A stretch of 64,000 nucleotides of DNA from Patescibacteria group bacterium (GCA_043808365.1 JAZDEZ010000008.1:919-64918); one strand, 5' to 3'. Counted from the first letter of the stretch, positions 2,762-64,000 are shown. Translations and numbers: made by a program. Notes: generated from the letters alone by a model not told the origin.

Positions 2762-3244
2762 TTACGTTAATTTTTTTTCTAAAATTATTTCATACTCTTT
2801 ATAGCCCATCCGCCGGTAAAGATGAACAGCCCGGCGGTTTTTTGCCGAGACCTTGATTGACATGCGGGAAATGCCCCGCCGCCTGCACCACTGGTTGAAA
2901 ACCCGACCCAGCTGCGTGCCGATGCCCTTACTCCGATACCGCGGGCGGACATATAAGAAAACCAGCCGACTGGACTTGGCTTGGCGCCGGACCGCGGACC
3001 GCCGCATGACCGTGCCAATTAAAAATCCAACGATTCGGTGACGCGCCAATGCCACGATGAATAAGTGGTCTTTCTTCTTCAAACGGCTGGCCAGATACCG
3101 CGACGCGGAACGGGAATTCGCCCAATGCACGTACATGGTCGGATCATACTCGCGCCGCTCAAGCTTGATATAATCCCGGACCATCTCTTTCGCGATGGGC
3201 AGATCGGCCTTGGTTGCTTTACGCCAGGTAATTGCCTTATTCAT
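2762..3244 (-). CDS. GNAT family N-acetyltransferase
   Basis: 160 aa. Acetyl-CoA-binding motif RPRYRSKGIGTQL followed by NRRAVHLYRRMGY. Confidence 0.8.
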   Translation of the reverse strand: MNKAITWRKATKADLPIAKEMVRDYIKLERREYDPTMYVHWANSRSASRYLASRLKKKDHLFIVALARHRIVGFLIGTVMRRSAVRRQAKSSRLVFLYVRPRYRSKGIGTQLGRVFNQWCRRRGISRMSIKVSAKNRRAVHLYRRMGYKEYEIILEKKLT

Positions 3245-3249
3245 AAATC

Positions 3250-3625
3250 CTTCTTTTTAGCTGCACTATCGGGGTGGGGCCCGCCTAGACTCGACGCTCG
3301 CTTCGCCTATCGAGGCGAGTCTAGTCGAGGCTGGAGAATCGTCCCGCCATGAAGGCGGGATGCCGCCCTACATTTGAAAATATAGGTAGCGGCGGCAGAC
3401 TCCCGAATTCCCCCTCCATAATGAAGTCATCGTACGGGGAAAACTCACACCCTGTATAGTCATCTCAATCGGGGATACCGGCCCCGGATCAAGTCCGGGG
3501 GAACCGGTGACCTCTTGCTCCGGGGCGTGTCGGCGGTTCCCGCATCTCCACACCCGCCTCGTCTCCTCACAACCTAAAGCAGTTCAGGTTGTTCGTAGCC
3601 TCGGCCCCCATGCATGCTGTACTAA
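3250..3625. ncRNA. GC-rich, hairpin-dense non-coding block (unclassified structured RNA or cluster of hairpin repeats)
   Basis: No credible ORF. The ends are complementary on the minus strand (GGGGGCCGAGGC ... GCCTC ... GGGCCCC). Several perfect local stems are present (CTAGACTCG/CGAGTCTAG, CCCCGGA/TCCGGGG, CAACCT/AGGTTG). It lies directly 3' of tRNA-Pro. The class could not be assigned by eye. Confidence 0.3.
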
Positions 3626-3628
3626 GAA

Positions 3629-3702
3629 TCGGGGTACTGGGACTCGAACCCAGGATCTCTGGCACCCCATGCCAGCGCGATAGCCAACTTCGCTATACCC
3701 CG
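3629..3702 (-). tRNA. tRNA-Pro (anticodon GGG)
   Basis: 74-nt cloverleaf read by hand: CGGGGTA TA GCGA-AGTTGGCTA-TCGC G CTGGC-ATGGGGT-GCCAG AGATC CTGGG-TTCGAGT-CCCAG TACCCCG A. CCA is not encoded. Confidence 0.9.
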
Positions 3703-3839
3703 TTTCTTAAAATAGCATGCGCGCCTGCCCCGCAATGAACGAAGTGAGTTATGCGGGGCTAGCCTCAGCCAGAGGCTGATCCGCCTCCGGTGGAAACTGC
3801 TTGCCCCGTCGAATGACGGGGCGTTATACCCCGTTTCTT
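3694..3839. repeat. About 116-nt hairpin-module insert flanked by a 15-nt direct repeat that includes the tRNA-Pro 5' end
   Basis: TATACCCCGTTTCTT occurs at 3694-3708 and 3825-3839. The interior holds the hairpins CCCCGCA..TGCGGGG, CAGCC-AGA-GGCTG, TCCGCC..GGTGGA and GCCCCGTC..GACGGGGC. Confidence 0.6.
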
Positions 3840-5707: not shown

Positions 5708-7162
5708 TCAACCTAATTTCGGCTGACGCGTGTGCCATTCTGTCGACTGTTCATAGGCGTACGCTGTTCGTAAGACTGTCGCTTCGTCAAATGACTTGCC
5801 CATGATCTGCAGGCCGATCGGCAATCCTTTGGTAAAACCGCACGGGATCGATATGCCGCACAGCCCGCCGATATTGGCCTGGACATTATAGATATCCGAC
5901 AGGTACATCAGCAATGGGTCGGCGAATTTCTCGCCGAGCTTGAAAGCCACGGACGGCGTGGTCGGCGTGATCAGGCAGTCGACTTTCTTGAACGCGTCAG
6001 CCAGTTCGCGCTTGATGACAGACCGAACCTTCTGGGCTTTAACATAATATTGGTCATAATAACCGGCAGACAAAGCGAACGTACCCAGGATAATCCGGCG
6101 CTTGGCCTCATCGCCAAACCCCTTTTCCTTCGAGAGGGAATATACTTCAAAAAGGTTTTTTGCCGCATCATCGGCTGACAGCCCGTACCGGATCCCGTCA
6201 AACCGCGCCAGGTTTGATGATACTTCTGACATGACCGTGATCAAATAAACCGACAAGGCGTATTTCGTATGCGGTAAACGTAATTTTACGGCTTTCGCGC
6301 CCAGGCTCTCCAGTTGTTTAATCGCATCCTTGACGGCCGTCCGGATATCCTGGTCCATTCCGTCTACAAAATATTCCTCCGCCACGCCGATTTTCAGCCC
6401 CTTTACGCCACTTTTGAGCGACGAAAAGTCTAACGGTTTTTTTACAGCAGTCGCATCCCGGCCGTCTGGTCCGGCGATTGAACTGAAAAGCGCGGCGCAA
6501 TCTTTGACGGTTTTGGTCAGCGGCCCGATCTGGTCCAGTGACGACCCCATGGCTGACAAGCCGAACCGCGATACCCGGCCATAGGTCGGCTTCAGGCCGA
6601 CCACCCCGCAGAAAGCGGCCGGTTGGCGGATAGAGCTGCCCGTGTCCGAGCCAAGCGCCGCGAGGCACATATCGGCCGAGACAGCGGCCGCGGAACCGCC
6701 GGATGAACCGCCGGGTACCCGGTCAATGTCCCACGGGTTATGCGTGTTGAAATACGCGGAATTTTCCGTTGAAGAGCCCATGGCAAACTCATCCATATTC
6801 GTCTTGCCCAAGAAAACGGCGCCGGCGGATTTGAGCTTGGCAATCACGGTCGCGTCGTATGCCGCGATATATTTTTCAAGGATCCTTGACCCGCTTGTGC
6901 ATGCCGCCCCGCTGACCAGGATATTGTCCTTGATCGCCAAGGGGATGCCAGTCAATGCCGTCATCTTTCCACTGCTTATTTTCTTATCCGCTTCATTAGC
7001 TTGCCGTAAAGCGGACTCCTTAGTCATGGCGATGAAAGCTTGGATTTTTCCGTCAGTTTTTTTTATCAATGCCAAACACGCCTCCGTAAGTTCACGGGAG
7101 CTGAATTCCTTTTTGGTCAGGCCAAGATGCGCCTGGTCAATTGTCAGTTTGTGCAGTTCCAT
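5708..7162 (-). CDS. gatA: Glutamyl-tRNA(Gln) amidotransferase subunit A
   Basis: 484 aa. Amidase signature GGSSGGSAAAV and typical GatA N- and C-termini. Confidence 0.95.
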   Translation of the reverse strand: MELHKLTIDQAHLGLTKKEFSSRELTEACLALIKKTDGKIQAFIAMTKESALRQANEADKKISSGKMTALTGIPLAIKDNILVSGAACTSGSRILEKYIAAYDATVIAKLKSAGAVFLGKTNMDEFAMGSSTENSAYFNTHNPWDIDRVPGGSSGGSAAAVSADMCLAALGSDTGSSIRQPAAFCGVVGLKPTYGRVSRFGLSAMGSSLDQIGPLTKTVKDCAALFSSIAGPDGRDATAVKKPLDFSSLKSGVKGLKIGVAEEYFVDGMDQDIRTAVKDAIKQLESLGAKAVKLRLPHTKYALSVYLITVMSEVSSNLARFDGIRYGLSADDAAKNLFEVYSLSKEKGFGDEAKRRIILGTFALSAGYYDQYYVKAQKVRSVIKRELADAFKKVDCLITPTTPSVAFKLGEKFADPLLMYLSDIYNVQANIGGLCGISIPCGFTKGLPIGLQIMGKSFDEATVLRTAYAYEQSTEWHTRQPKLG

Positions 7163-7208
7163 GTACCTGGATCCTTTTTACCTTATGGCTTAGCGCCGAT
7201 ACGCCGTC

Positions 7209-7493
7209 TTACTCCAATACCGGTCTGACCTTGTTTAAATTACCCGCTCGCTCGGGCCACTGGTCAATGATCGGCTTGGTATCCGGCCATGGCTCCACCT
7301 CATCAGTACGTAAGGTGCTGGCCGGCAAGTTATGCGAACCGACCTTCACCTGGCTGGTATCGACCTCATTTAATTGCTTCATATAATCCAAAATAGAGGA
7401 AAGCTGGCCGGCAAACCTCTTTTTTTCGTCAGGTGACAATTCTATTCTGGCCAATGACGCCAATTTTTCTACGTCTTTTTCCGTTAAATCCAT
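7209..7493 (-). CDS. gatC: Glutamyl-tRNA(Gln) amidotransferase subunit C
   Basis: 94 aa. LARIELSPDEKKRFAGQLSSILDYMKQL, located immediately upstream of gatA. Confidence 0.9.
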   Translation of the reverse strand: MDLTEKDVEKLASLARIELSPDEKKRFAGQLSSILDYMKQLNEVDTSQVKVGSHNLPASTLRTDEVEPWPDTKPIIDQWPERAGNLNKVRPVLE

Positions 7494-7539
7494 ATATAAC
7501 AGTATATCATCAGTTTTATAAAATAAAAAGCCGAAGGCT

Positions 7540-8972
7540 GTCCCACGGAAGTGATAATGTCCTACTTGAGGGAAGTTAAAATGTCCTACCTCAAGGTAGA
7601 ATGAAATGGTTATTCACTAACCGTTTCACCTATGACATTACTCACTATGTCGACCAAAGAATTGGATAGGTTTCAAATCATCAAGCAGCTAATTGGCAAA
7701 CGCGTTAACGGCACAGAGGCGGCGAGGTTGCTTCAGGTAACCGCTCGCCATGTCAGACGCTTGAAATCCAAGGTACGGCGGTTCGGTCCTCAAGGCCTCA
7801 TTCACGGTAACCGCGGTAAAGTGAGCCATAACCGCCTGCCAGAGGAAGAACTGAAAGCCATCAGCGCCTTGCTTTTCAGGCGCTACCCTGGCTTTGGACC
7901 GACCTTTGCCGGTGAAAAGTTGTCTGAACATCACGGTATCGCGCGTGATCCCAAAACCATCCGCCAGATCATGATTGAGGCGGGATTGTGGAAACCGCGA
8001 TTAACAAAGAAAGCGTCTGTCCACCGGCAGTGGCGAGAAAGAAAGGCCTGTTATGGAGAAATGATCCAATTCGACGGCTCTTATGAGCACTGGTTTGAGG
8101 ACCGGGAAGGAAGCGGGAAAGTCTGCCTGCTAGCCGCCGTTGACGATGCTACTGGTACGGTGGCCAAAGCCGCGTTTGACGTCCACGAGGGGGTGTTTCC
8201 CGTATTCGCCTTTTGGAAAGCATACTTGGCCGCAAACGGCTGCCCCCGGTCGATTTACCTGGACAAATTCAGCACCTACAACATGAATCACCCCATAGCC
8301 AAGGAGAATCCGGACACCCTCACCCAGTTTGAGAGAGCGGCCCGGGAACTCGGGATCGAGCTCATCAAGGCCAACAGCCCCCAGGCTAAAGGCAGGGTGG
8401 AGCGGTTGTTTGCCACACTCCAGGACCGGCTGACGAAAGAGCTCCGGCTCGCCGGTATCTCGACCATTCCGGAAGCTAACGCTTTCTTGGAATCCTACCT
8501 GCCGAAATTCAATGCCCGATTCTCCGTACTACCGCGTTCTACGGCAAACCTGCACCGTCGGTTGACGGTGACCGAGGCTGGTAACCTGAGCAGTGTTTTC
8601 TCTAAACAGGCTGAGCGAACTATCCAAAATGATTTTACCTTCTCCTTTCACGGCCAATGGCGCCAGCTCACCCCGGAGCAGCCGGTGACGGTCTGCAAAA
8701 AGGACACCGTGATGGTCGAAGAGCGCCTGGACAACACAATCCAGGTCAGACTAAGGGGTAAATATCTCAATTACCGGCTATTGCCCACCCGGCCAGCCAG
8801 GCATACCGTGCCCATTAAAATGCCCTGGGTCTTACCGGCCTCAAAGGCCCACGTCCCGCCCCCCAATCATCCCTGGAGGCTGTCATTTAACGCCAGCATA
8901 AAAGCTAAACAAAACGCCCAGGTAGGACATTTCTATTTCCCTGGAAGTAGGACATTTTAACTTCCCGTTGAC
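7540..8972 (+). mobile_element. Insertion sequence (ISNCY-like, single DDE transposase gene)
   Basis: About 55-bp imperfect terminal inverted repeats, each carrying two AATGTCCTAC boxes (left end GTCCCACGGAAGTGATAATGTCCTAC..., right end reverse complement GTCAACGGGAAGTTAAAATGTCCTAC...). A perfect 20-bp core GGGAAGTTAAAATGTCCTAC occurs at 7570-7589 and 8948-8967. The element is flanked by the 17-nt direct repeat ATAAAAAGCCGAAGGCT (7523-7539 and 8973-8989). Confidence 0.85.
7632..8960 (+). CDS. Transposase (N-terminal HTH plus rve/DDE integrase core)
   Basis: 442 aa. The N-terminus KELDRFQIIKQLIGKRVNGTEAARLLQVTARHVRRLKSKVRRFGPQGLIHGNRG is typical of proteins annotated as ISNCY family. The central part is DDE-type. 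Confidence 0.85.
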   Translation: MTLLTMSTKELDRFQIIKQLIGKRVNGTEAARLLQVTARHVRRLKSKVRRFGPQGLIHGNRGKVSHNRLPEEELKAISALLFRRYPGFGPTFAGEKLSEHHGIARDPKTIRQIMIEAGLWKPRLTKKASVHRQWRERKACYGEMIQFDGSYEHWFEDREGSGKVCLLAAVDDATGTVAKAAFDVHEGVFPVFAFWKAYLAANGCPRSIYLDKFSTYNMNHPIAKENPDTLTQFERAARELGIELIKANSPQAKGRVERLFATLQDRLTKELRLAGISTIPEANAFLESYLPKFNARFSVLPRSTANLHRRLTVTEAGNLSSVFSKQAERTIQNDFTFSFHGQWRQLTPEQPVTVCKKDTVMVEERLDNTIQVRLRGKYLNYRLLPTRPARHTVPIKMPWVLPASKAHVPPPNHPWRLSFNASIKAKQNAQVGHFYFPGSRTF

Positions 8973-56265: not shown

Positions 56266-56296
56266 TGGAATATCGTTCAGATTATATTTGATACTT

Positions 56297-56653
56297 ATGT
56301 TATTCAGATTCAGACAATTTCCTGTTTACAAGGATTCCAGAAAATTCCGAAATGACATATACGCTTTAACGAAAAAATTTCCTAAAGAAGAGCTATTCAG
56401 TTTAACTTCGCAAATCAGACGCGCGACAAACTCCATCTTATTGAACATTGCTGAAGGATCAAACCGACTGTCCGATAATGACTTTGGACGCTTTTTAAAT
56501 ACAGCATTGACTTCACTTGAAGAAGCAGTCGCCTGTATGGATATTGCGCTCGATGAAAAATATATTAGCCTACAAGATCACGAAAAACACCTTGCATTAG
56601 CAGAAAACCTTGGCAAGCAATTACTCGGTTTCAGCAAAAAACTTCGAAAGTAA
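56297..56653 (+). CDS. Four-helix-bundle protein (23S rRNA intervening-sequence protein / Avd family)
   Basis: FPVYKDSRKFRNDIYALTKKFPKEELFSLTSQIRRATNSILLNIAEGSNR is a close match to the TIGR02436 pattern. The ATG at 56297 is preferred over the TTG at 56288. Confidence 0.85.
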   Translation: MLFRFRQFPVYKDSRKFRNDIYALTKKFPKEELFSLTSQIRRATNSILLNIAEGSNRLSDNDFGRFLNTALTSLEEAVACMDIALDEKYISLQDHEKHLALAENLGKQLLGFSKKLRK

Positions 56654-57810: not shown

Positions 57811-57997
57811 ACTACCTCGCAGCAAGCTGACGAGGTATCGTCAGCCAAGAGATATGTTCATTCTCCGTAGCTAGCTATCCTCCTTCGCTTGCGCTTCGGA
57901 GGATTCTCCTCATTTGTTTCCCCGCAGTCCAGCCTTCGTAGCCGAAGCTACTTCGGCGGAGCAGGCCAAGCTGCGGAGTATTAATGCGGAGGAGAAT
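57807..57997 (+). repeat. Dispersed GC-rich hairpin repeat, long copy
   Basis: ATGAACTACCTCGCAGCAAGCTGACGAGGTATCGTCAGC...GTTCATTCTCCGTAGCT ... CAGTCCAGCCTTCGTAGC ... GCGGAGGAGAAT. It matches 62132-62245 but carries two extra internal hairpins. Confidence 0.75.
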
Positions 57998-59551: not shown

Positions 59552-59580
59552 TTGACAACCGGAGGCATTCTCAATATACT
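59552..59580 (+). promoter_or_regulatory. Sigma70-like promoter for clpC
   Basis: TTGACA (59552-59557), 17-nt spacer, TATACT (59575-59580). Preceded by the hairpin CCCGT-cttgt-ACGGG plus a T-run (terminator of the 459-aa gene). Confidence 0.5.
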
Positions 59581-59623
59581 AAACTGTACTAAAAAATCAT
59601 TTGTACGCGTATACTATATATAT

Positions 59624-62119
59624 ATGGATAACGCAATAATCGATAAATTCACCACCCACCCGAAAAACTCCCTGAAAAAGGCTCGCGAGCTTTCAGCCTC
59701 GCTCAGCCATGCGCAGATCAATCCGGAGCACCTGATATACGGGCTGGTCATGCAAAAAGGCAGTATTGCCGCGGAATTGCTGTCAAAAATGGGCCTCACG
59801 GCCGAACGGGTCCGCAGCCATATCCTCCAGTCAAATAAGAGCGCTCGAGAAACAGAAAAAAATCAGGATACCATTACCCTGGCCGACACCGCAAAAAAAG
59901 TAATTGAAAAAGCGGCGCTGATCGCCCACCAAAACGGCCACAAATATGTCGGCACGGAACATCTCCTGATCAGCCTAGTCCGCATCAACACGCCAGTCAT
60001 GGTAAATTTATGGGAGCATAACCGCGTCAATCTGGCTAAGCTCGAATCCAGCCTGGAGACGGTGATGCGCAGTACGTCAAAATTTCCCGACCTGGCGCAA
60101 ATCTTCGAGCAGGCGAAAGAATCCGACAAGGAAGAAAAGACTAAGGACGACTCAAAGACGCCGGCCTTGGATTTCTTCACGACCGACCTGACCAATGCAA
60201 AATTGCAGAAAAGCATCGACCCGGTGGTCGGTCGGGCAAACGAGATCGAGCGCCTCATCCATATCCTTTCACGCCGGACAAAAAACAACCCGGTACTGAT
60301 CGGAGAGCCCGGCGTGGGCAAAACTGCCATTGTGGAGGGTTTGGCAAAAAAAATAATGTCCGGCGACGTGCCCGACGTTTTGCTGAACAAAAAAATCCTC
60401 CGGCTTGACCTGTCCCTGGTTGTGGCCGGCACGATCTACCGCGGCGAATTCGAGGGCCGGTTCAAGCAGATCATCGACGAAATCAAGAAAGACCCGAACA
60501 TCATCATGTTCATCGACGAACTGCACACCATCATCGGCACCGGATCGGCAGCCGGCTCCATGGATGCCGCGAATATCCTAAAACCGGCTTTAGCAAAAGG
60601 AGATATCCGGACCATCGGCGCCACGACGCTTGATGAATACCGAAAATACATAGAATCCGACGCCGCGCTCGAGCGCCGTTTCCAGCCGATCATCATCGAA
60701 GAAGCAACTCCGGAAGAAACCGCCGAAGTGCTCCGCGGCATCAAAGACAACTATGAAAAATACCATCTCGTCCAAATCACCGACGACGCCATCCAGGCCG
60801 CCGTCAGACTGAGCACCAGGTATTTGCAGGACAAATACCTGCCGGACAAGGCCATCGACCTGATTGACGAGGCCGCATCAAAGATAAAAATCTCCAGCCA
60901 CAGCGACGGCCTGCTGAAGGAAATTTTCCAGACGGAAAAGGAGATAGGAAAACTGAGAAGCGTAAAAAACGAGCTGGTTAACAAGGAAAATTTTGAAAAA
61001 GCCCTGAAGATAAAAATGCAGGAATCGGCGCTCCAGGACCGGCTGGCCGGACTGCGCCAGGCACAAACCCAGGCTGCCAAAAAATTCATCGGTAAAATTA
61101 CCCAGCATGACGTAGCCGAAGTCGTGGCCCGCATCACAAAAATCCCGCTGAAAGAATTAGTAGTCGAAGAAAAAGAACGGCTCCTGCGCCTGGAAGCAAT
61201 CATGGGTGGGCAGATTATCGGCCAGTCGGCCACGCTGACCACCATCGCGGATTTCATCAGGCGGTCCCGCGTCGGGCTCTCTGATCCCCGCCGGCCGATC
61301 GCCTCGTTCGTTTTCCTGGGCCCCTCCGGCGTCGGCAAGACTGAAACGGCCAAAGTATTGGCAAAAACCGTGTTCGAGGATGAACACGCGCTCATCAGGA
61401 TCGATATGTCGGAGTTTGCCGAAAGCTTCAATGTTTCCAAGCTCATCGGCGCCCCGGCCGGTTACGTCGGGTATAAGGAAGGTTCAAAACTGACCGAGCC
61501 GGTCCGCAGGAAGCCGTACTCCGTCGTCCTGTTCGATGAAATTGAAAAAGCCCATCCGGAAGTGTTCAACCTCCTCCTGCAAATCCTGGACGAAGGCCAC
61601 CTGACTGACGCATCGGGCCGCCGCGTTAATTTTAAAAATACCATTGTCATCATGACCTCTAATGTCGGCCTGTCGTCACTGAACCAAGGCGCGACCATCG
61701 GCTTCGAAGCCCAGACAAAAGAAGACCAGGCCGCCGCCGACCAGCGTTACAAGGAGATTAAGTCGGGCGTGATGAAAGAATTGGAAAAAAAATTCCGGCC
61801 CGAGCTTTTAAACCGCATAGATAAAATAATCGTATTCCGGCCATTGAATCGGGGCGATATCATAAAAATCGTTGATTTGGCCATTCTGGAGCTTGGACGC
61901 AAGCTGCAGGAACAAAACATCAAACTCTCCATGGACAAGGCGGTATCCGCCCTGATCGCTGACCGGAGCTACCAGCCTGACCAAGGCGCCCGAGCCGTAC
62001 GCCGGAATGTTCAGGAACTCATAGAAAACAAAATTGCCGCCGATCTCCTGTCTGGTAAATATTCATCTGGAGATACGATTAAAATCAAAATAAAAAATAA
62101 TGAATTTGCCTTTTCGTAA
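59624..62119 (+). CDS. clpC: ATP-dependent Clp protease ATP-binding subunit ClpC (class I AAA+)
   Basis: Clp_N repeats, Walker A GEPGVGKT and GPSGVGKT, and a short UVR-like middle domain ([12 protein letters not shown]). The start is reset to ATG 59624 (MDNAIIDKF). Confidence 0.9.
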
Positions 62120-62131
62120 CAAACTGCTACA

Positions 62132-62245
62132 ATGAACTACCTCGCAGTAAGCTGACGAGGTATCGTCAGCAAAGAAATGCGTTCATTCTCCGTAGCTTCT
62201 CTTTAATTCATTTCTCTCAGTCCAGACTTCGTAGCGGAGGAGAAT
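62132..62245 (+). repeat. Dispersed GC-rich hairpin repeat, short copy
   Basis: ATGAACTACCTCGCAGTAAGCTGACGAGGTATCGTCAGCAAAGAAATGCGTTCATTCTCCGTAGCT...CAGTCCAGACTTCGTAGCGGAGGAGAAT, starting 13 nt after the clpC stop. Confidence 0.75.
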
Positions 62246-62286: not shown

Positions 62287-63009
62287 ATGGTTTCACTACA
62301 TGCAATCAAACAGTTCATCCTGGATATCCTGTTCCCGATACACTGCCTCGGATGCGATCAGGAGGGCGAATGGATTTGTGATCGCTGTATGAAGCGCATA
62401 CGCCTGAATGCCCGGCAAGCCTGCCCGGTATGCAGACAGCCTGGCATGGGCGATGTCTGTCCAGGCTGCCGGTCAAAAACCGCTTTGGACGGATTGCTGG
62501 CGGTGTGCGATTACGATCAGCCTCTTGTCCAGGCCTGCATCCATACGCTTAAGTACCTGGCCATACCTTCATTGGCACCACCAATTGTAGTACTCATGTG
62601 GCGGTGCCTTACCCAGTTAAGTCCGCTGCCTAAACCAAGCATTCTTTCAAATAAAAACACTGCCCTAACACCAGTTCCTTTGCACGCGCGCAGGCTAAAA
62701 AATCGCGGATTCAACCAATCAGAGCTTATCGCGAAAGAAATCGGCAGGCTGGCCGGCCTACCTTCAGTTGAATTGCTTGTTCGAACATGCTACACGGAAA
62801 GCCAGATGTCATTAACACGCGCCGAACGCCTAAAGAACGTCCTCGGGGCGTTTTCAATAAAAAGCGATTTTGAAAAAATGCCGGAAAATGTTATAATTAT
62901 CGACGATGTCGCCACCACGCTCGCCACTTTACATGAATGCGCCAGTGTACTAAAATCACACGGCGCCAAAACAGTCTGGGGCTTGGTGGTAGCCAGGGGC
63001 TCATCATAA
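62287..63009 (+). CDS. comF: ComF family protein (double zinc ribbon plus phosphoribosyltransferase domain)
   Basis: CLGC...CDRC and CPVC...CPGC ribbons, plus the PRTase loop IIIDDVATTLATL. Confidence 0.85.
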   Translation: MVSLHAIKQFILDILFPIHCLGCDQEGEWICDRCMKRIRLNARQACPVCRQPGMGDVCPGCRSKTALDGLLAVCDYDQPLVQACIHTLKYLAIPSLAPPIVVLMWRCLTQLSPLPKPSILSNKNTALTPVPLHARRLKNRGFNQSELIAKEIGRLAGLPSVELLVRTCYTESQMSLTRAERLKNVLGAFSIKSDFEKMPENVIIIDDVATTLATLHECASVLKSHGAKTVWGLVVARGSS

Positions 63010-63018
63010 CAAAATTTG

Positions 63019-63041
63019 TGGAGAGGTGGCCGAGTTGGCTG
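63019..63041 (+). pseudogene. Orphan 5' fragment of tRNA-Ser(GCU) (first 22 nt plus 1 leader nt)
   Basis: TGGAGAGGTGGCCGAGTTGGCTG is identical to 63114-63136. It is followed by the twin hairpins CCCGCC-AGA-GGCGGG and TCCGCC-TTT-GGCGGA instead of the rest of the tRNA. Confidence 0.7.
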
Positions 63042-63114
63042 CCCGCCAGAGGCGGGTCCGCCTTTGGCGGAAAGGCTACTTAAAAAGAATAAATTAATTT
63101 GTAAAAATAATTTT

Positions 63115-63206
63115 GGAGAGGTGGCCGAGTTGGCTGAAGGCGGCAGGTTGCTAACCTGTTATACGGGTTTAAATCCGTATCGCGAGTTCGAATCTCGCCC
63201 TCTCCG
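63115..63206 (+). tRNA. tRNA-Ser (anticodon GCU)
   Basis: GGAGAGG TG GCC-GAGTTGGCTGAA-GGC G GCAGG-TTGCTAA-CCTGT, long variable arm, GCGAG-TTCGAAT-CTCGC CCTCTCC G. CCA is not encoded. Confidence 0.9.
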
Positions 63207-63227
63207 AATTGAAATACTAACACATAT

Positions 63228-63465
63228 GGAGAGATGCCGGAGTGGTCGATCGGGGCGGTCTTGTCCCGCGAATAGCGGTGGGATGTCGGAGTGGTTTAAC
63301 GAGCTGGTCTTGAAAACCAGAGTCCCTGTAAGGGGACCGCAGGTTCGAATCCTGCTCCCACCGCCATTCGCGCGATCCCGCCTACATTTTATAAAATAAA
63401 GGGGGCAGGAAAAACCGGTAAGGGTGATAAGCCCTTCGGGGGTTCGAATCCCTCTCTCTCCGCCA
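63228..63465 (+). tRNA. Class II tRNA (Ser-like) split in the anticodon loop by a 147-nt insert (intron-containing gene or disrupted pseudogene)
   Basis: 5' half 63228-63263: GGAGAGA TG CCG-GAGTGGTCGAT-CGG G GCGGT CTTG. 3' half 63411-63465: AAA ACCGG T-AAGGGTGATAAGCCCTT-C GGGGG-TTCGAAT-CCCTC TCTCTCC G CCA. Acceptor, anticodon-stem and T-arm pairings all close across the insert. Confidence 0.6.
63277..63366 (+). tRNA. tRNA-Ser (anticodon UGA), nested inside the split tRNA
   Basis: GGTGGGA TG TCG-GAGTGGTTTAA-CGA G CTGGT-CTTGAAA-ACCAG, variable arm AGTCCCTGTAAGGGGACC, GCAGG-TTCGAAT-CCTGC TCCCACC G CCA. Every stem is Watson-Crick. Confidence 0.9.
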
Positions 63466-63513
63466 AGAAAACTTAGTATCGGATGCAACCCGAATAACTA
63501 AAAATGATTGATT

Positions 63514-64000
63514 ATGCAAAATAACATTAAACATATCTGGTTTGATCTTGATGGAACTTTAACAATCCATACGCCAGAGTTTCACAAAGCACACAATAGT
63601 TTACGTTACAAAACATATGCCGAAGTTGTAAAAAAACCGGTTACAGAAGAGCTACAACAAGAATACGAAACCCTATACAAGAAATATGGCAGTAACTCAG
63701 CAGTTTTTCGTTCCCTTGGGTTACCGTCGGGCTATTGGCAACAATATTTTAACAAATTAGATGAAACTAAATTTTATAAACCCGAGCCGCAAGTCTATAA
63801 AACCCTCCAGAAACTAAAAGGGTTGGTCCCTATTTCTATCTTCACTAACGTTACGCCAGAAAAAAACTCACGAACGCTAGGGGCCATTGGCGTCAACCCA
63901 CATTGGTTTACTCATATTCTTACCGGGGATGACATTAAAGAGCGTAAGCCTGCGTTAGACGGTTTCCGTACGATGATAAATAAGTCTCAAATTCCACCAG
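63514..64000 (+). CDS. HAD-superfamily hydrolase, N-terminal part (runs off the window end)
   Basis: Absent from the track (no stop in-window). MQNNIKHIWFDLDGTLTIHT... carries the DxDGT motif I, and ...SIFTN... motif II. Confidence 0.7.
   Translation, partial: MQNNIKHIWFDLDGTLTIHTPEFHKAHNSLRYKTYAEVVKKPVTEELQQEYETLYKKYGSNSAVFRSLGLPSGYWQQYFNKLDETKFYKPEPQVYKTLQKLKGLVPISIFTNVTPEKNSRTLGAIGVNPHWFTHILTGDDIKERKPALDGFRTMINKSQIPP

Follow-up and report, generated by a model that had tools for sequence, protein, structure and literature searches.

Mobile DNA in transfer RNA (tRNA) genes is a known theme. Genomic islands and prophages that enter such genes regenerate their target and displace a tRNA fragment (PMC4383910), and the group I introns of Patescibacteria tRNA genes are full-size self-splicing ribozymes that follow U35 and end in G in tRNA-Asn, tRNA-Asp and tRNA-Tyr, with none in tRNA-Ser and none containing a tRNA (Nakagawa et al. 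2026, PMC13011429). A model for the archaeal tRNA-Thr of Caldiarchaeum has an integrating mobile element leave a 5' tRNA fragment upstream (PMC3293823), and the hairpin-forming elements of mitochondria are small palindromic repeats that invade genes (PMC2800124). The locus reported here resembles each of these systems in part. It lies near the right end of a 64,000-nt stretch (the window; JAZDEZ010000008.1:919-64918) of a metagenome-assembled genome of the Patescibacteria, or candidate phyla radiation (CPR). In it, a tRNA-Ser(UGA) gene is broken in its anticodon loop by an insert that holds a second, complete tRNA-Ser(UGA) gene flanked by the arms of a short palindromic repeat, which we call E. 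A resident tRNA gene disrupted by an insertion and replaced by a tRNA carried as cargo would be new; nothing comparable came up in our literature search, which looked for a tRNA gene nested in a tRNA gene and for such palindromic insertions in tRNA genes of the CPR. We consider it probable that mobile DNA with a replacement tRNA was inserted here at the DNA level, and that the outer gene is a young pseudogene.

An Interrupted tRNA-Ser(UGA) Gene

The split locus is made up of the following parts.

63228-63263, plus strand: outer 5' half, 36 nt, tRNA positions 1-35, ending C32-U33-U34-G35
63264-63276, plus strand: left arm of E hairpin 1, TCCCGCGAATAGC, opening with the terminal inverted repeat TCCCGC; pairs with 63363-63375
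63277-63366, plus strand: inner complete tRNA-Ser(UGA), type B, with encoded CCA, in the loop of E hairpin 1 (ARAGORN, tRNA-Ser(tga); Rfam, 61.8 bits)
63367-63375, plus strand: right arm of E hairpin 1, TTCGCGCGA; 8 of 9 positions complement 63264-63272
63376-63410, plus strand: E hairpin 2, a TCCCGCC/GGCAGGA stem, mismatched at a single C-A, that closes a 21-nt AT-rich loop, TACATTTTATAAAATAAAGGG (hairpin scan)
63411-63465, plus strand: outer 3' half, 55 nt, from A36 to CCA, with a C43-to-G change that gives a G27:G43 mismatch

Across the window, ARAGORN calls three tRNA genes, namely tRNA-Pro (3629-3702, minus strand), tRNA-Ser(GCU) (63114-63207) and the inner tRNA-Ser(UGA) (63277-63366). 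A run in intron mode (-i0,400) on 62981-63520, a check suggested in the initial annotation of this DNA, did not report the outer gene, which routine annotation would therefore miss. When the halves are joined at 63263|63411, the same program calls a 91-nt tRNA-Ser(tga), in whose sequence the acceptor stem GGAGAGA/TCTCTCC, the G73-CCA end, a long variable arm and a T arm can be read, together with the G27:G43 mismatch. By itself, the 3' half gives an antisense-strand match to an Rfam model that resembles a tRNA-Ser 3' half. The coordinates first given for the outer halves, the insert and the inner gene all hold by ARAGORN, Rfam and the sequence itself.

Loci of relatives were retrieved through their ComF homologues, and the comparison is built on a handful of contigs. 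One of these, L007, has an intact, uninterrupted tRNA-Ser(UGA) gene at 1881-1967 (54.3 bits with the Rfam tRNA model, for which the gathering score is 29 bits). The outer 5' half is identical to its first 36 nt (1881-1916, 36/36), and over the whole spliced outer sequence the identity to this gene is 91%. The T arm and acceptor strand of the outer 3' half are also identical to the L007 gene; the variable arm differs yet still pairs, and the sole change outside it is C43 to G. This change would account for the fact that the minimum free energy (MFE) structure of the spliced outer sequence is no cloverleaf, whereas that of the L007 gene is one. The D arm of the outer 5' half is identical to that of the resident tRNA-Ser(UGA) in L001 and L002. 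The outer sequence is thus a tRNA-Ser(UGA) of the type that we call A2, the resident gene of a comF - tRNA-Ser(GCU) - tRNA-Ser(UGA) locus, and with a 36/36 match in one half and 91% identity to an intact gene over the whole, the split gene is more than a product of chance.

The anticodon arm of the L007 gene reads GCGGT-CTTGAAA-ACCGC, so that the equivalent of the break site is CTTG|AAAACC. This uninterrupted site fixes the insertion point between G35 and A36. Judged by the filled and empty sites, the window has an insertion of 147 bp exactly between these two bases, with no target duplication and no base lost. The initial annotation had also raised a tRNA-Leu(UAA) reading, by analogy with cyanobacterial group I introns. 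The intact L007 orthologue does not bear this out: it reads CTTGAAAACC, with the anticodon UGA, and the 5' exon ends in G, not U. Placing the boundary at U34/G gives either the anticodon UAA or an 8-nt loop; neither fits the L007 gene, and the Leu(UAA) reading was ruled out.

A D-arm pattern scan of metagenomes returned 120 loci, nearly all of them ordinary tRNA-Ser(CGA/UGA) genes from many phyla. The pattern is thus not clade-specific, and the scan serves as a negative control: of the ~115 metagenome tRNA-Ser genes that share this 18-nt D arm, none carries an insert in its anticodon loop. A search for the nested arrangement by way of the spurious open reading frames (ORFs) translated across the split locus gave no match.

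The Insert as a Copy of a Repeated Element

The insert (63264-63410) is 147 nt long, and the 90-nt tRNA leaves 57 nt of it. These remaining nucleotides recur elsewhere. In its general form, E is a non-coding palindromic unit of ~56 nt consisting of two tandem hairpins with TCCCGCC/GGCGGGA stems, the second of which has an AT-rich loop. The window holds a second copy.

3342-3397, plus strand: E2, TCCCGCC-ATGAA-GGCGGGA followed by TGCCGCC-(AT-rich loop CTACATTTGAAAATATAGGTAGC)-GGCGGCA, without tRNA cargo, among tRNA-like relics downstream of tRNA-Pro

Another copy, in L007 (1805-1859), reads TCCCGCC-ATTC-GGCGGGA and then TCCCGCCC-(20-nt AT-rich loop)-GGGCGGGA. It has no tRNA inside and lies within a decayed relic that immediately precedes the intact A2 gene, bounded by ...GGGGCGGTCTTG and AAAAC..., so that both of its junctions are those of the window. 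L004 has the right half of E after its tRNA-Ser(UGA), with GGCAGGA|AAAAC as the junction at its end, again as in the split locus. The four right halves (the window's E1 and E2, L007 and L004) align. Within the split locus, the left arm of hairpin 1 is homologous to the TCCCGCC that opens E in L007 (at 1805) and E2 (at 3342), and the right arm aligns with the GGCGGGA arm of both. Hairpin 2 carries the right terminal repeat at its end and aligns with its counterparts in L007, L004 and E2; one position of its stem is C-G in L007 and T-A in L004, against C-A in the window. The inner tRNA, preceded by TAGC and followed by its own GCCA, occupies the place of the ATTC loop of hairpin 1 in the L007 copy.

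Copies without a tRNA adopt a fold of two tandem hairpins, with z about -5 (E2, z = -5.0), and a hairpin scan of the 64-kb window found only two hairpins of the E type, while shuffled sequences yielded unrelated hairpins only. The termini are TCCCGCC...GGCGGGA in L007, match at 6/7 positions in E2, and are TCCCGC...GCAGGA in the split locus. E is thus a short non-coding unit with terminal inverted repeats, found in several copies with the same ends. No target-site duplication accompanies any of the three copies (flanks CTTG|AAAAC twice, ATCG|GACTC once). The insert is therefore a copy of a repeated element and falls outside every known intron class. Since E stands in L007 and at E2 without a tRNA and outside intact genes, it is independent of RNA splicing; we infer present or past mobility for E or its cargo.

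In the split locus, 63264-63283 pairs with 63356-63375 at 18/20 positions (a 17-nt inverted repeat by BLAST, 94%), and the MFE structure uses 15 of these helix pairs. The extended acceptor helix described in the initial annotation is therefore present, with its length, put there at about 17 bp, understated. The long helix results from the stem of E hairpin 1 stacking on the inner acceptor stem. E sits in a 7-nt loop over a 5-bp stem, and its cargo in the loop of hairpin 1, so that both sites are hairpin loops.

In these respects E resembles repetitive extragenic palindromic (REP) elements and bacterial interspersed mosaic elements (BIMEs), the Rickettsia palindromic elements and the hairpin-forming elements: all are short, GC-rich, non-coding hairpins with inverted termini and several copies, and all are linked with insertion into hairpin loops. 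The insertion sequence IS1397, for example, inserts into REP loops. Unlike repeats of the REP/BIME type, E has a two-hairpin build with an AT-rich loop, and its two copies in 64 kb are both at tRNA loci, one with a complete tRNA gene.

The same junctions bear on whether the locus was misassembled. Strain variants or tandem tRNA-Ser genes could have been threaded together, since the source is a metagenome-assembled genome and the tRNA genes share k-mers such as GGTTCGAATCC and GGTCTTGAAAACC. The junctions, however, lie outside the shared k-mers, and they recur in independent samples put together by independent assemblers, the left one (CTTG|TCCCGC) in L007 and the right one (GGCAGGA|AAAAC) in both L004 and L007. 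Similar mosaics are moreover identical in the independent assemblies L130 and L131. An assembly artefact, which the initial annotation had named as a possible source of error, is accordingly highly improbable.

The Inner tRNA Gene

The inner gene has a 7-bp acceptor stem, G73, a long variable arm and a UGA anticodon, and its MFE structure is a cloverleaf (z = -2.9). Its identification as a canonical tRNA-Ser(UGA) at 63277-63366 is upheld by ARAGORN and by an Rfam score of 61.8 bits, and B is presumed to be the functional gene. It lies 69 nt downstream of tRNA-Ser(GCU). A scan of 62950-63560 for a simple sigma-70 consensus found no promoter-like site, either between the tRNA genes or in the AT-rich loop of E. 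This, with the 69-nt spacing, suggests that B would be transcribed from the promoter of tRNA-Ser(GCU); that gene and the outer 5' half are probably co-transcribed, with tRNA-Ser(GCU) as the transcription source for the inner tRNA. A phage origin of the inner tRNA was considered and dropped, as the single IMG/VR match was a chance match inside a coding sequence.

Introns and Split tRNAs

The initial annotation had stated that the insert is no group I intron, and searches with Rfam agree: there is no group I or group II match at E <= 1 in 62500-64000, and none at gathering score anywhere in the window. Besides lacking a match to the conserved catalytic core (P3-P9, RF00028-type model), the insert is only 147 nt long including its 90-nt tRNA (at least 200 nt is usual), its 5' exon ends in G35, and the insert itself ends in A (GGCAGGA). 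Compared with the Patescibacteria tRNA introns (PMC13011429), the locus is alike in phylum, in the position at 35/36, in the clean insertion without target duplication and in being missed by standard tRNA finders. It differs in that the 5' side ends in G35, that just 57 nt are not tRNA, that no group I match is found and that copies exist outside genes.

A bulge-helix-bulge intron was rejected as well. The predicted fold sets the break points at the base of the long continuous helix and of the second hairpin, and the geometry, in which a 4-bp helix parts two 3-nt bulges at the splice sites, cannot be drawn. Archaeal tRNA genes with introns, or split or permuted ones (PMC3293823), share with this locus a break in or near the anticodon loop, GC-rich complementary flanks and a proposed origin from mobile elements. 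Unlike them, the present case is in a bacterium, has no bulge-helix-bulge motif and is not expected to meet a splicing endonuclease, and the archaeal cases yield a functional product. We know of no archaeal intron that contains a complete tRNA. With neither a group I or II match nor a bulge-helix-bulge motif, the novel intron or split-tRNA arrangement that the initial annotation offered as one option is without support.

A form of that option can still be drawn in which the nested gene is functional and the outer tRNA is still made. The inner tRNA would be intron-like, and RNase P together with RNase Z would free it, or else RNase III by cutting the ~20-bp helix; the flanks would be trimmed and the halves ligated, or kept as a paired split tRNA, and selection would have preserved the halves since before the split from L004. 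In its favor, the halves are essentially intact despite near-saturated neutral divergence from L004, which shares the right junction, and the 18/20 helix would bring the break points together. Serine tRNA synthetase, furthermore, does not read the anticodon. The position at 35/36 is also the one that is enriched for group I introns in Patescibacteria tRNAs (PMC13011429). Against it stands the lack of any ribozyme or bulge-helix-bulge motif. The ends that RNase P and RNase Z leave behind (with the 5'-phosphate and the 3'-OH misplaced between the partners, and with tails of 13 nt and 44 nt) would have to be joined into a 7-nt loop, and to our knowledge no bacterial pathway or route rejoins such halves; a tRNA nicked in the anticodon loop, for its part, cannot decode. 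E also occurs without a tRNA and outside intact genes, L004 has lost its outer gene, the L007 gene has no insert, and the product would be redundant, again a tRNA-Ser(UGA), with no obvious benefit. We regard a functional nested gene as extremely unlikely.

Turnover of the tRNA-Ser(UGA) Locus

At the right end of the window, the order is ClpC (59552-62119), ComF (62287-63009), the tRNA cluster and a HAD hydrolase from 63514; the genes neighboring the split locus (LemA, HtpX, ClpC and ComF) are bacterial. The cluster opens with the following gene.

63114-63207, plus strand: tRNA-Ser(GCU), 20 nt upstream of the outer 5' half (ARAGORN; Rfam, 57.9 bits)

The order comF, tRNA-Ser(GCU), tRNA-Ser(UGA) is also found in L001, L004 and L007. 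In L001, tRNA-Ser(GCU) is followed 13 nt later by an ordinary tRNA-Ser(UGA). L004 shares the junction of tRNA, E right half and AAAAAC with the window; it lacks the outer 5' half and has, of a broken 3' half, only the last 18 nt, which means that the outer gene is dispensable there. The look at related genomes that the initial annotation proposed thus gave two outcomes, an intact outer gene without the insert (L007) and an outer gene largely gone (L004). The inner tRNAs of the window and L004 are 73% identical and their E right halves about two-thirds identical. Relatives retrieved by way of the downstream HAD hydrolase do not keep the synteny (HTH or other genes lie upstream), and among them only L130 gave information on junctions.

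The two serine tRNA genes of the cluster differ in how well they are conserved. Whereas tRNA-Ser(GCU) is 96%-100% identical among the window, L001, L002 and L004, the tRNA-Ser(UGA) types are only 65%-78% alike: A1 in L001 and L002, A2 in L007 and as the outer gene of the window, B as the inner gene of the window, and B' in L004. To the right of tRNA-Ser(UGA), each relative has a gene order of its own, and all three tRNA loci of the window carry displaced fragments. From the divergence of the types, the displaced fragments and the differences in gene order, it follows that the tRNA-Ser(UGA) slot is not vertically inherited and has repeatedly been overwritten by incoming DNA. This agrees with what is known of tRNA genes as targets for mobile DNA (PMC4383910) and with the archaeal model of a 5' tRNA fragment left by an integrating element (PMC3293823).

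Such turnover could also reflect larger elements. The insert might be the remnant of an island or prophage with its own tRNA-Ser(UGA), integrated in the anticodon loop by a recombinase and later deleted to 147 bp, with E as a leftover att site or promoter. In favor of this, displaced 5' and 3' fragments are abundant at these loci; tRNA genes are classic integrase targets, and islands restore the split gene, with a displaced piece of it left behind (PMC4383910). tRNA-Ser(UGA) is the exact point at which synteny breaks, a large serine recombinase adjoins that gene in L002, and breakpoints recur after CTTG (window, L005 and L007) and after AAAAC (L004 and L007). However, no direct tRNA repeat flanks the insert, as conservative site-specific recombination would leave, and the junctions (G35|T and A|A36) have no common core. 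Both ends of E recur at E2 (3342-3397), whose context is unrelated, and no integrase lies nearby in the window. An island remnant therefore seems unlikely. The locus nonetheless shares features with islands (PMC4383910): in both, mobile DNA sits inside a tRNA-gene loop, the damage is made good and displaced fragments mark the event. They differ in that a whole different tRNA gene is brought here, no direct repeat is found at the junctions (CTTG|TCCC and AGGA|AAAA), no integrase is seen and the old gene is not regenerated. Direct repeats do occur at neighboring events, with 19 nt at tRNA-Pro, 23 nt at tRNA-Ser(GCU), and 17-23 nt at tRNA 3' ends in L007, L130 and L004.

The clean junctions invite a further reading, a reversible switch at the DNA level, in which an enzyme encoded elsewhere would precisely excise E and its cargo and regenerate the outer gene, so that both states persist and the halves stay intact. 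The absence of a target duplication, the 7-bp terminal inverted repeats exactly at the boundaries of three copies, the intact halves and the existence of both a filled state (window) and an empty one (L007) are all in keeping with it. A candidate enzyme was not found among the ORFs checked, however, and the empty site is known only from a fairly distant genome (L007, with 87% amino acid identity in ClpC). We rate this switch as very unlikely.

Probable Insertion with a Replacement tRNA

The evidence is best accommodated by the insertion of mobile DNA with a replacement tRNA. The window and the uninterrupted L007 gene together define a clean 147-bp insertion by comparison of filled and empty sites. 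The second option of the initial annotation, that the gene was killed by a site-specific insertion bearing its own replacement, is favored by the uninterrupted L007 gene, by the recurrence of E and by the loss of the outer gene in L004. In this scheme, E, or E-bounded DNA carrying a complete tRNA-Ser(UGA) of type B in the loop of hairpin 1, would have entered the resident A2 gene between G35 and A36. The resident would thereby have been destroyed, and B would have taken over as the serine tRNA with the UGA anticodon. Transcription would run on from tRNA-Ser(GCU) across the inactivated 5' half to B; RNase P, with the enzymes of the tRNA 3' end, would then set B free, and the outer halves would be lost as leader and trailer. 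We infer the recency of the insertion, the functioning of B and this route of processing.

Several observations weigh against this account, the first of which concerns age. The ClpC proteins of the relatives are 87%-92% identical to that of the window, and fourfold-degenerate positions are only 38%-55% identical, so that neutral sites are near saturation. Between the window and L004 these positions are 49%-55% identical, or ~0.7-0.85 substitutions per site. Had the arrangement been inherited from the common ancestor of the window and L004, the pseudogene should bear tens of changes, and its halves are nearly perfect. They are much too intact for an insertion of that age, which leaves recent recurrent insertion, gene conversion or selection. 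We prefer the first, independent recent insertions at the same position; this would imply site-specific mobility and fits the fast structural turnover at these loci. Alternatively, a second A2 copy elsewhere may keep the halves intact by gene conversion, or the outer halves may be under selection. Other points tell in the same direction. The full nested arrangement is present in one genome only; the window covers 64 kb of that genome, in which B is the sole tRNA-Ser(UGA) called by ARAGORN. Neither E copy has a transposase or recombinase near it among the ORFs checked, including those near E2, and the insert is too small to hold such a gene. Finally, no further copies of E were found in the GTDB species genomes, the JGI metagenome or IMG/VR. 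The JGI and IMG/VR scans each gave 0 matches, though the pattern used for the former matches L004, L007 and the window locally, and the one GTDB candidate was a chance match inside an Opitutus MarR-like gene.

E with its cargo might be a site-specific "replace-and-addict" micro-element, homing to position 35/36 of tRNA-Ser(UGA) genes without target duplication and persisting by bringing the only working copy; we offer this tentatively, as a possibility rather than an expectation.

If insertion with replacement is the right explanation, the locus catches a tRNA gene in the course of being replaced: incoming DNA destroys the resident at a precise point of the anticodon loop and brings a substitute of the same specificity. 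This would differ from the two known ways of neutralizing insertions in tRNA genes, self-splicing introns and gene-regenerating islands. It would also help explain why the tRNA-Ser(UGA) types are so much less alike than the tRNA-Ser(GCU) genes (65%-78% against 96%-100%) and why fragments are strewn across the tRNA loci of these reduced genomes. Loci of this kind mislead tRNA finders, and CPR tRNA inventories could look incomplete or redundant as a result. The intactness of the outer halves leaves a small chance of a much stranger outcome, which, if true, would be a complete tRNA serving as the intron of another tRNA in a bacterium.

Displaced tRNA Fragments and Other Repeats

Upstream of the real tRNA-Ser(GCU), the window has a displaced copy of its 5' end.

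63019-63071, plus strand: displaced tRNA-Ser(GCU) 5' fragment (23 nt) followed by two GC hairpins; 63019-63041 is identical to 63114-63136 (BLAST, 23/23)

The copy lies 95 nt upstream of the real gene, and the two hairpins that follow it read CCCGCC-AGAG-GCGGG and TCCGCC-TTTG-GCGGA. 5' fragments (GGAGAGGTGGCCGA) also precede tRNA-Ser(GCU) in L002 and L007, with a breakpoint different from that in the window. Inserts that follow tRNA-Ser(GCU) open with AATGAACGAAGTGA(A/G)TGAGG in L004, L005 and L007.

At the tRNA-Pro locus, an 18-nt copy upstream of the gene (3804-3839, minus strand) comprises 6 leader nucleotides and the first 12 nt of the tRNA, with one mismatch. It is followed by a hairpin, CCCCGTC-ATTC-GACGGGG, whose stem repeats acceptor-stem sequence and whose ATTC loop matches the 3' trailer of the real gene. 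Downstream of tRNA-Pro lie 3'-end-like relics, GGTATCCCCGATT and CCCCACCCCGATA. The flanks of E2, read on the minus strand within 3300-3440, are TTCGGGAGTC and CGATTCTCC. In L130, at 2670-2730 and just after a real tRNA-Cys, a comparable arrangement reads TTTCGGGAGTCTGCAA-(hairpin TCCGCC-GATTC-GGCGGA)-CGATTCCC. The hosts of E2 and of the L130 hairpin may each be a tRNA-Cys anticodon-arm relic or a T arm.

Repeated 3' ends are seen in L007 (1540-1730 and 1950-2085), L130 (2850-3040) and L004 (2370-2700). In each, a tRNA ends without CCA and, after an insert of 90-170 nt, its last 17-23 nt (from GAATC in the T loop) appear again with CCA.

Fragments of the tRNA-Ser(UGA) 5' end that stop right after CTTG occur in L005 and L007. 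The one in L005 (4760-4893) is of type A1, and 43 nt beyond it a new tRNA start, GGAGGCGTGCCGGAGTG, has an odd insertion after the D arm (TGCCGAAGGCGGGTGCGACC...), resembling the relic that precedes E in L007; the L005 contig runs out at this point. An unrelated metagenome contig, L020, has at 3107-3160 a tRNA-Ser 5' half with the same D arm that breaks after GAAAAC into non-tRNA sequence, an AAAAC breakpoint as in L004 and L007. In L002, a gene for a large serine recombinase (Resolvase/Recombinase/Zn_ribbon_recom, 6823-8359) begins ~120 nt downstream of tRNA-Ser(UGA), with a helix-turn-helix (HTH) gene beyond it, and two extra genes, one of them for a radical SAM enzyme, stand between tRNA-Ser(UGA) and tRNA-Ser(GCU).

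Elsewhere in the window, an identical 20-nt hairpin, GCTGACG-AGGTAT-CGTCAGC, follows both an HtpX-like gene (57826-57845) and ClpC (62151-62170), and could be a recurrent terminator or one more small palindromic repeat. At 56288-56653 lies a free-standing gene whose product is a 23S rRNA-intervening sequence protein (PF05635, E = 4e-31); the family is associated with insertions in rRNA genes.

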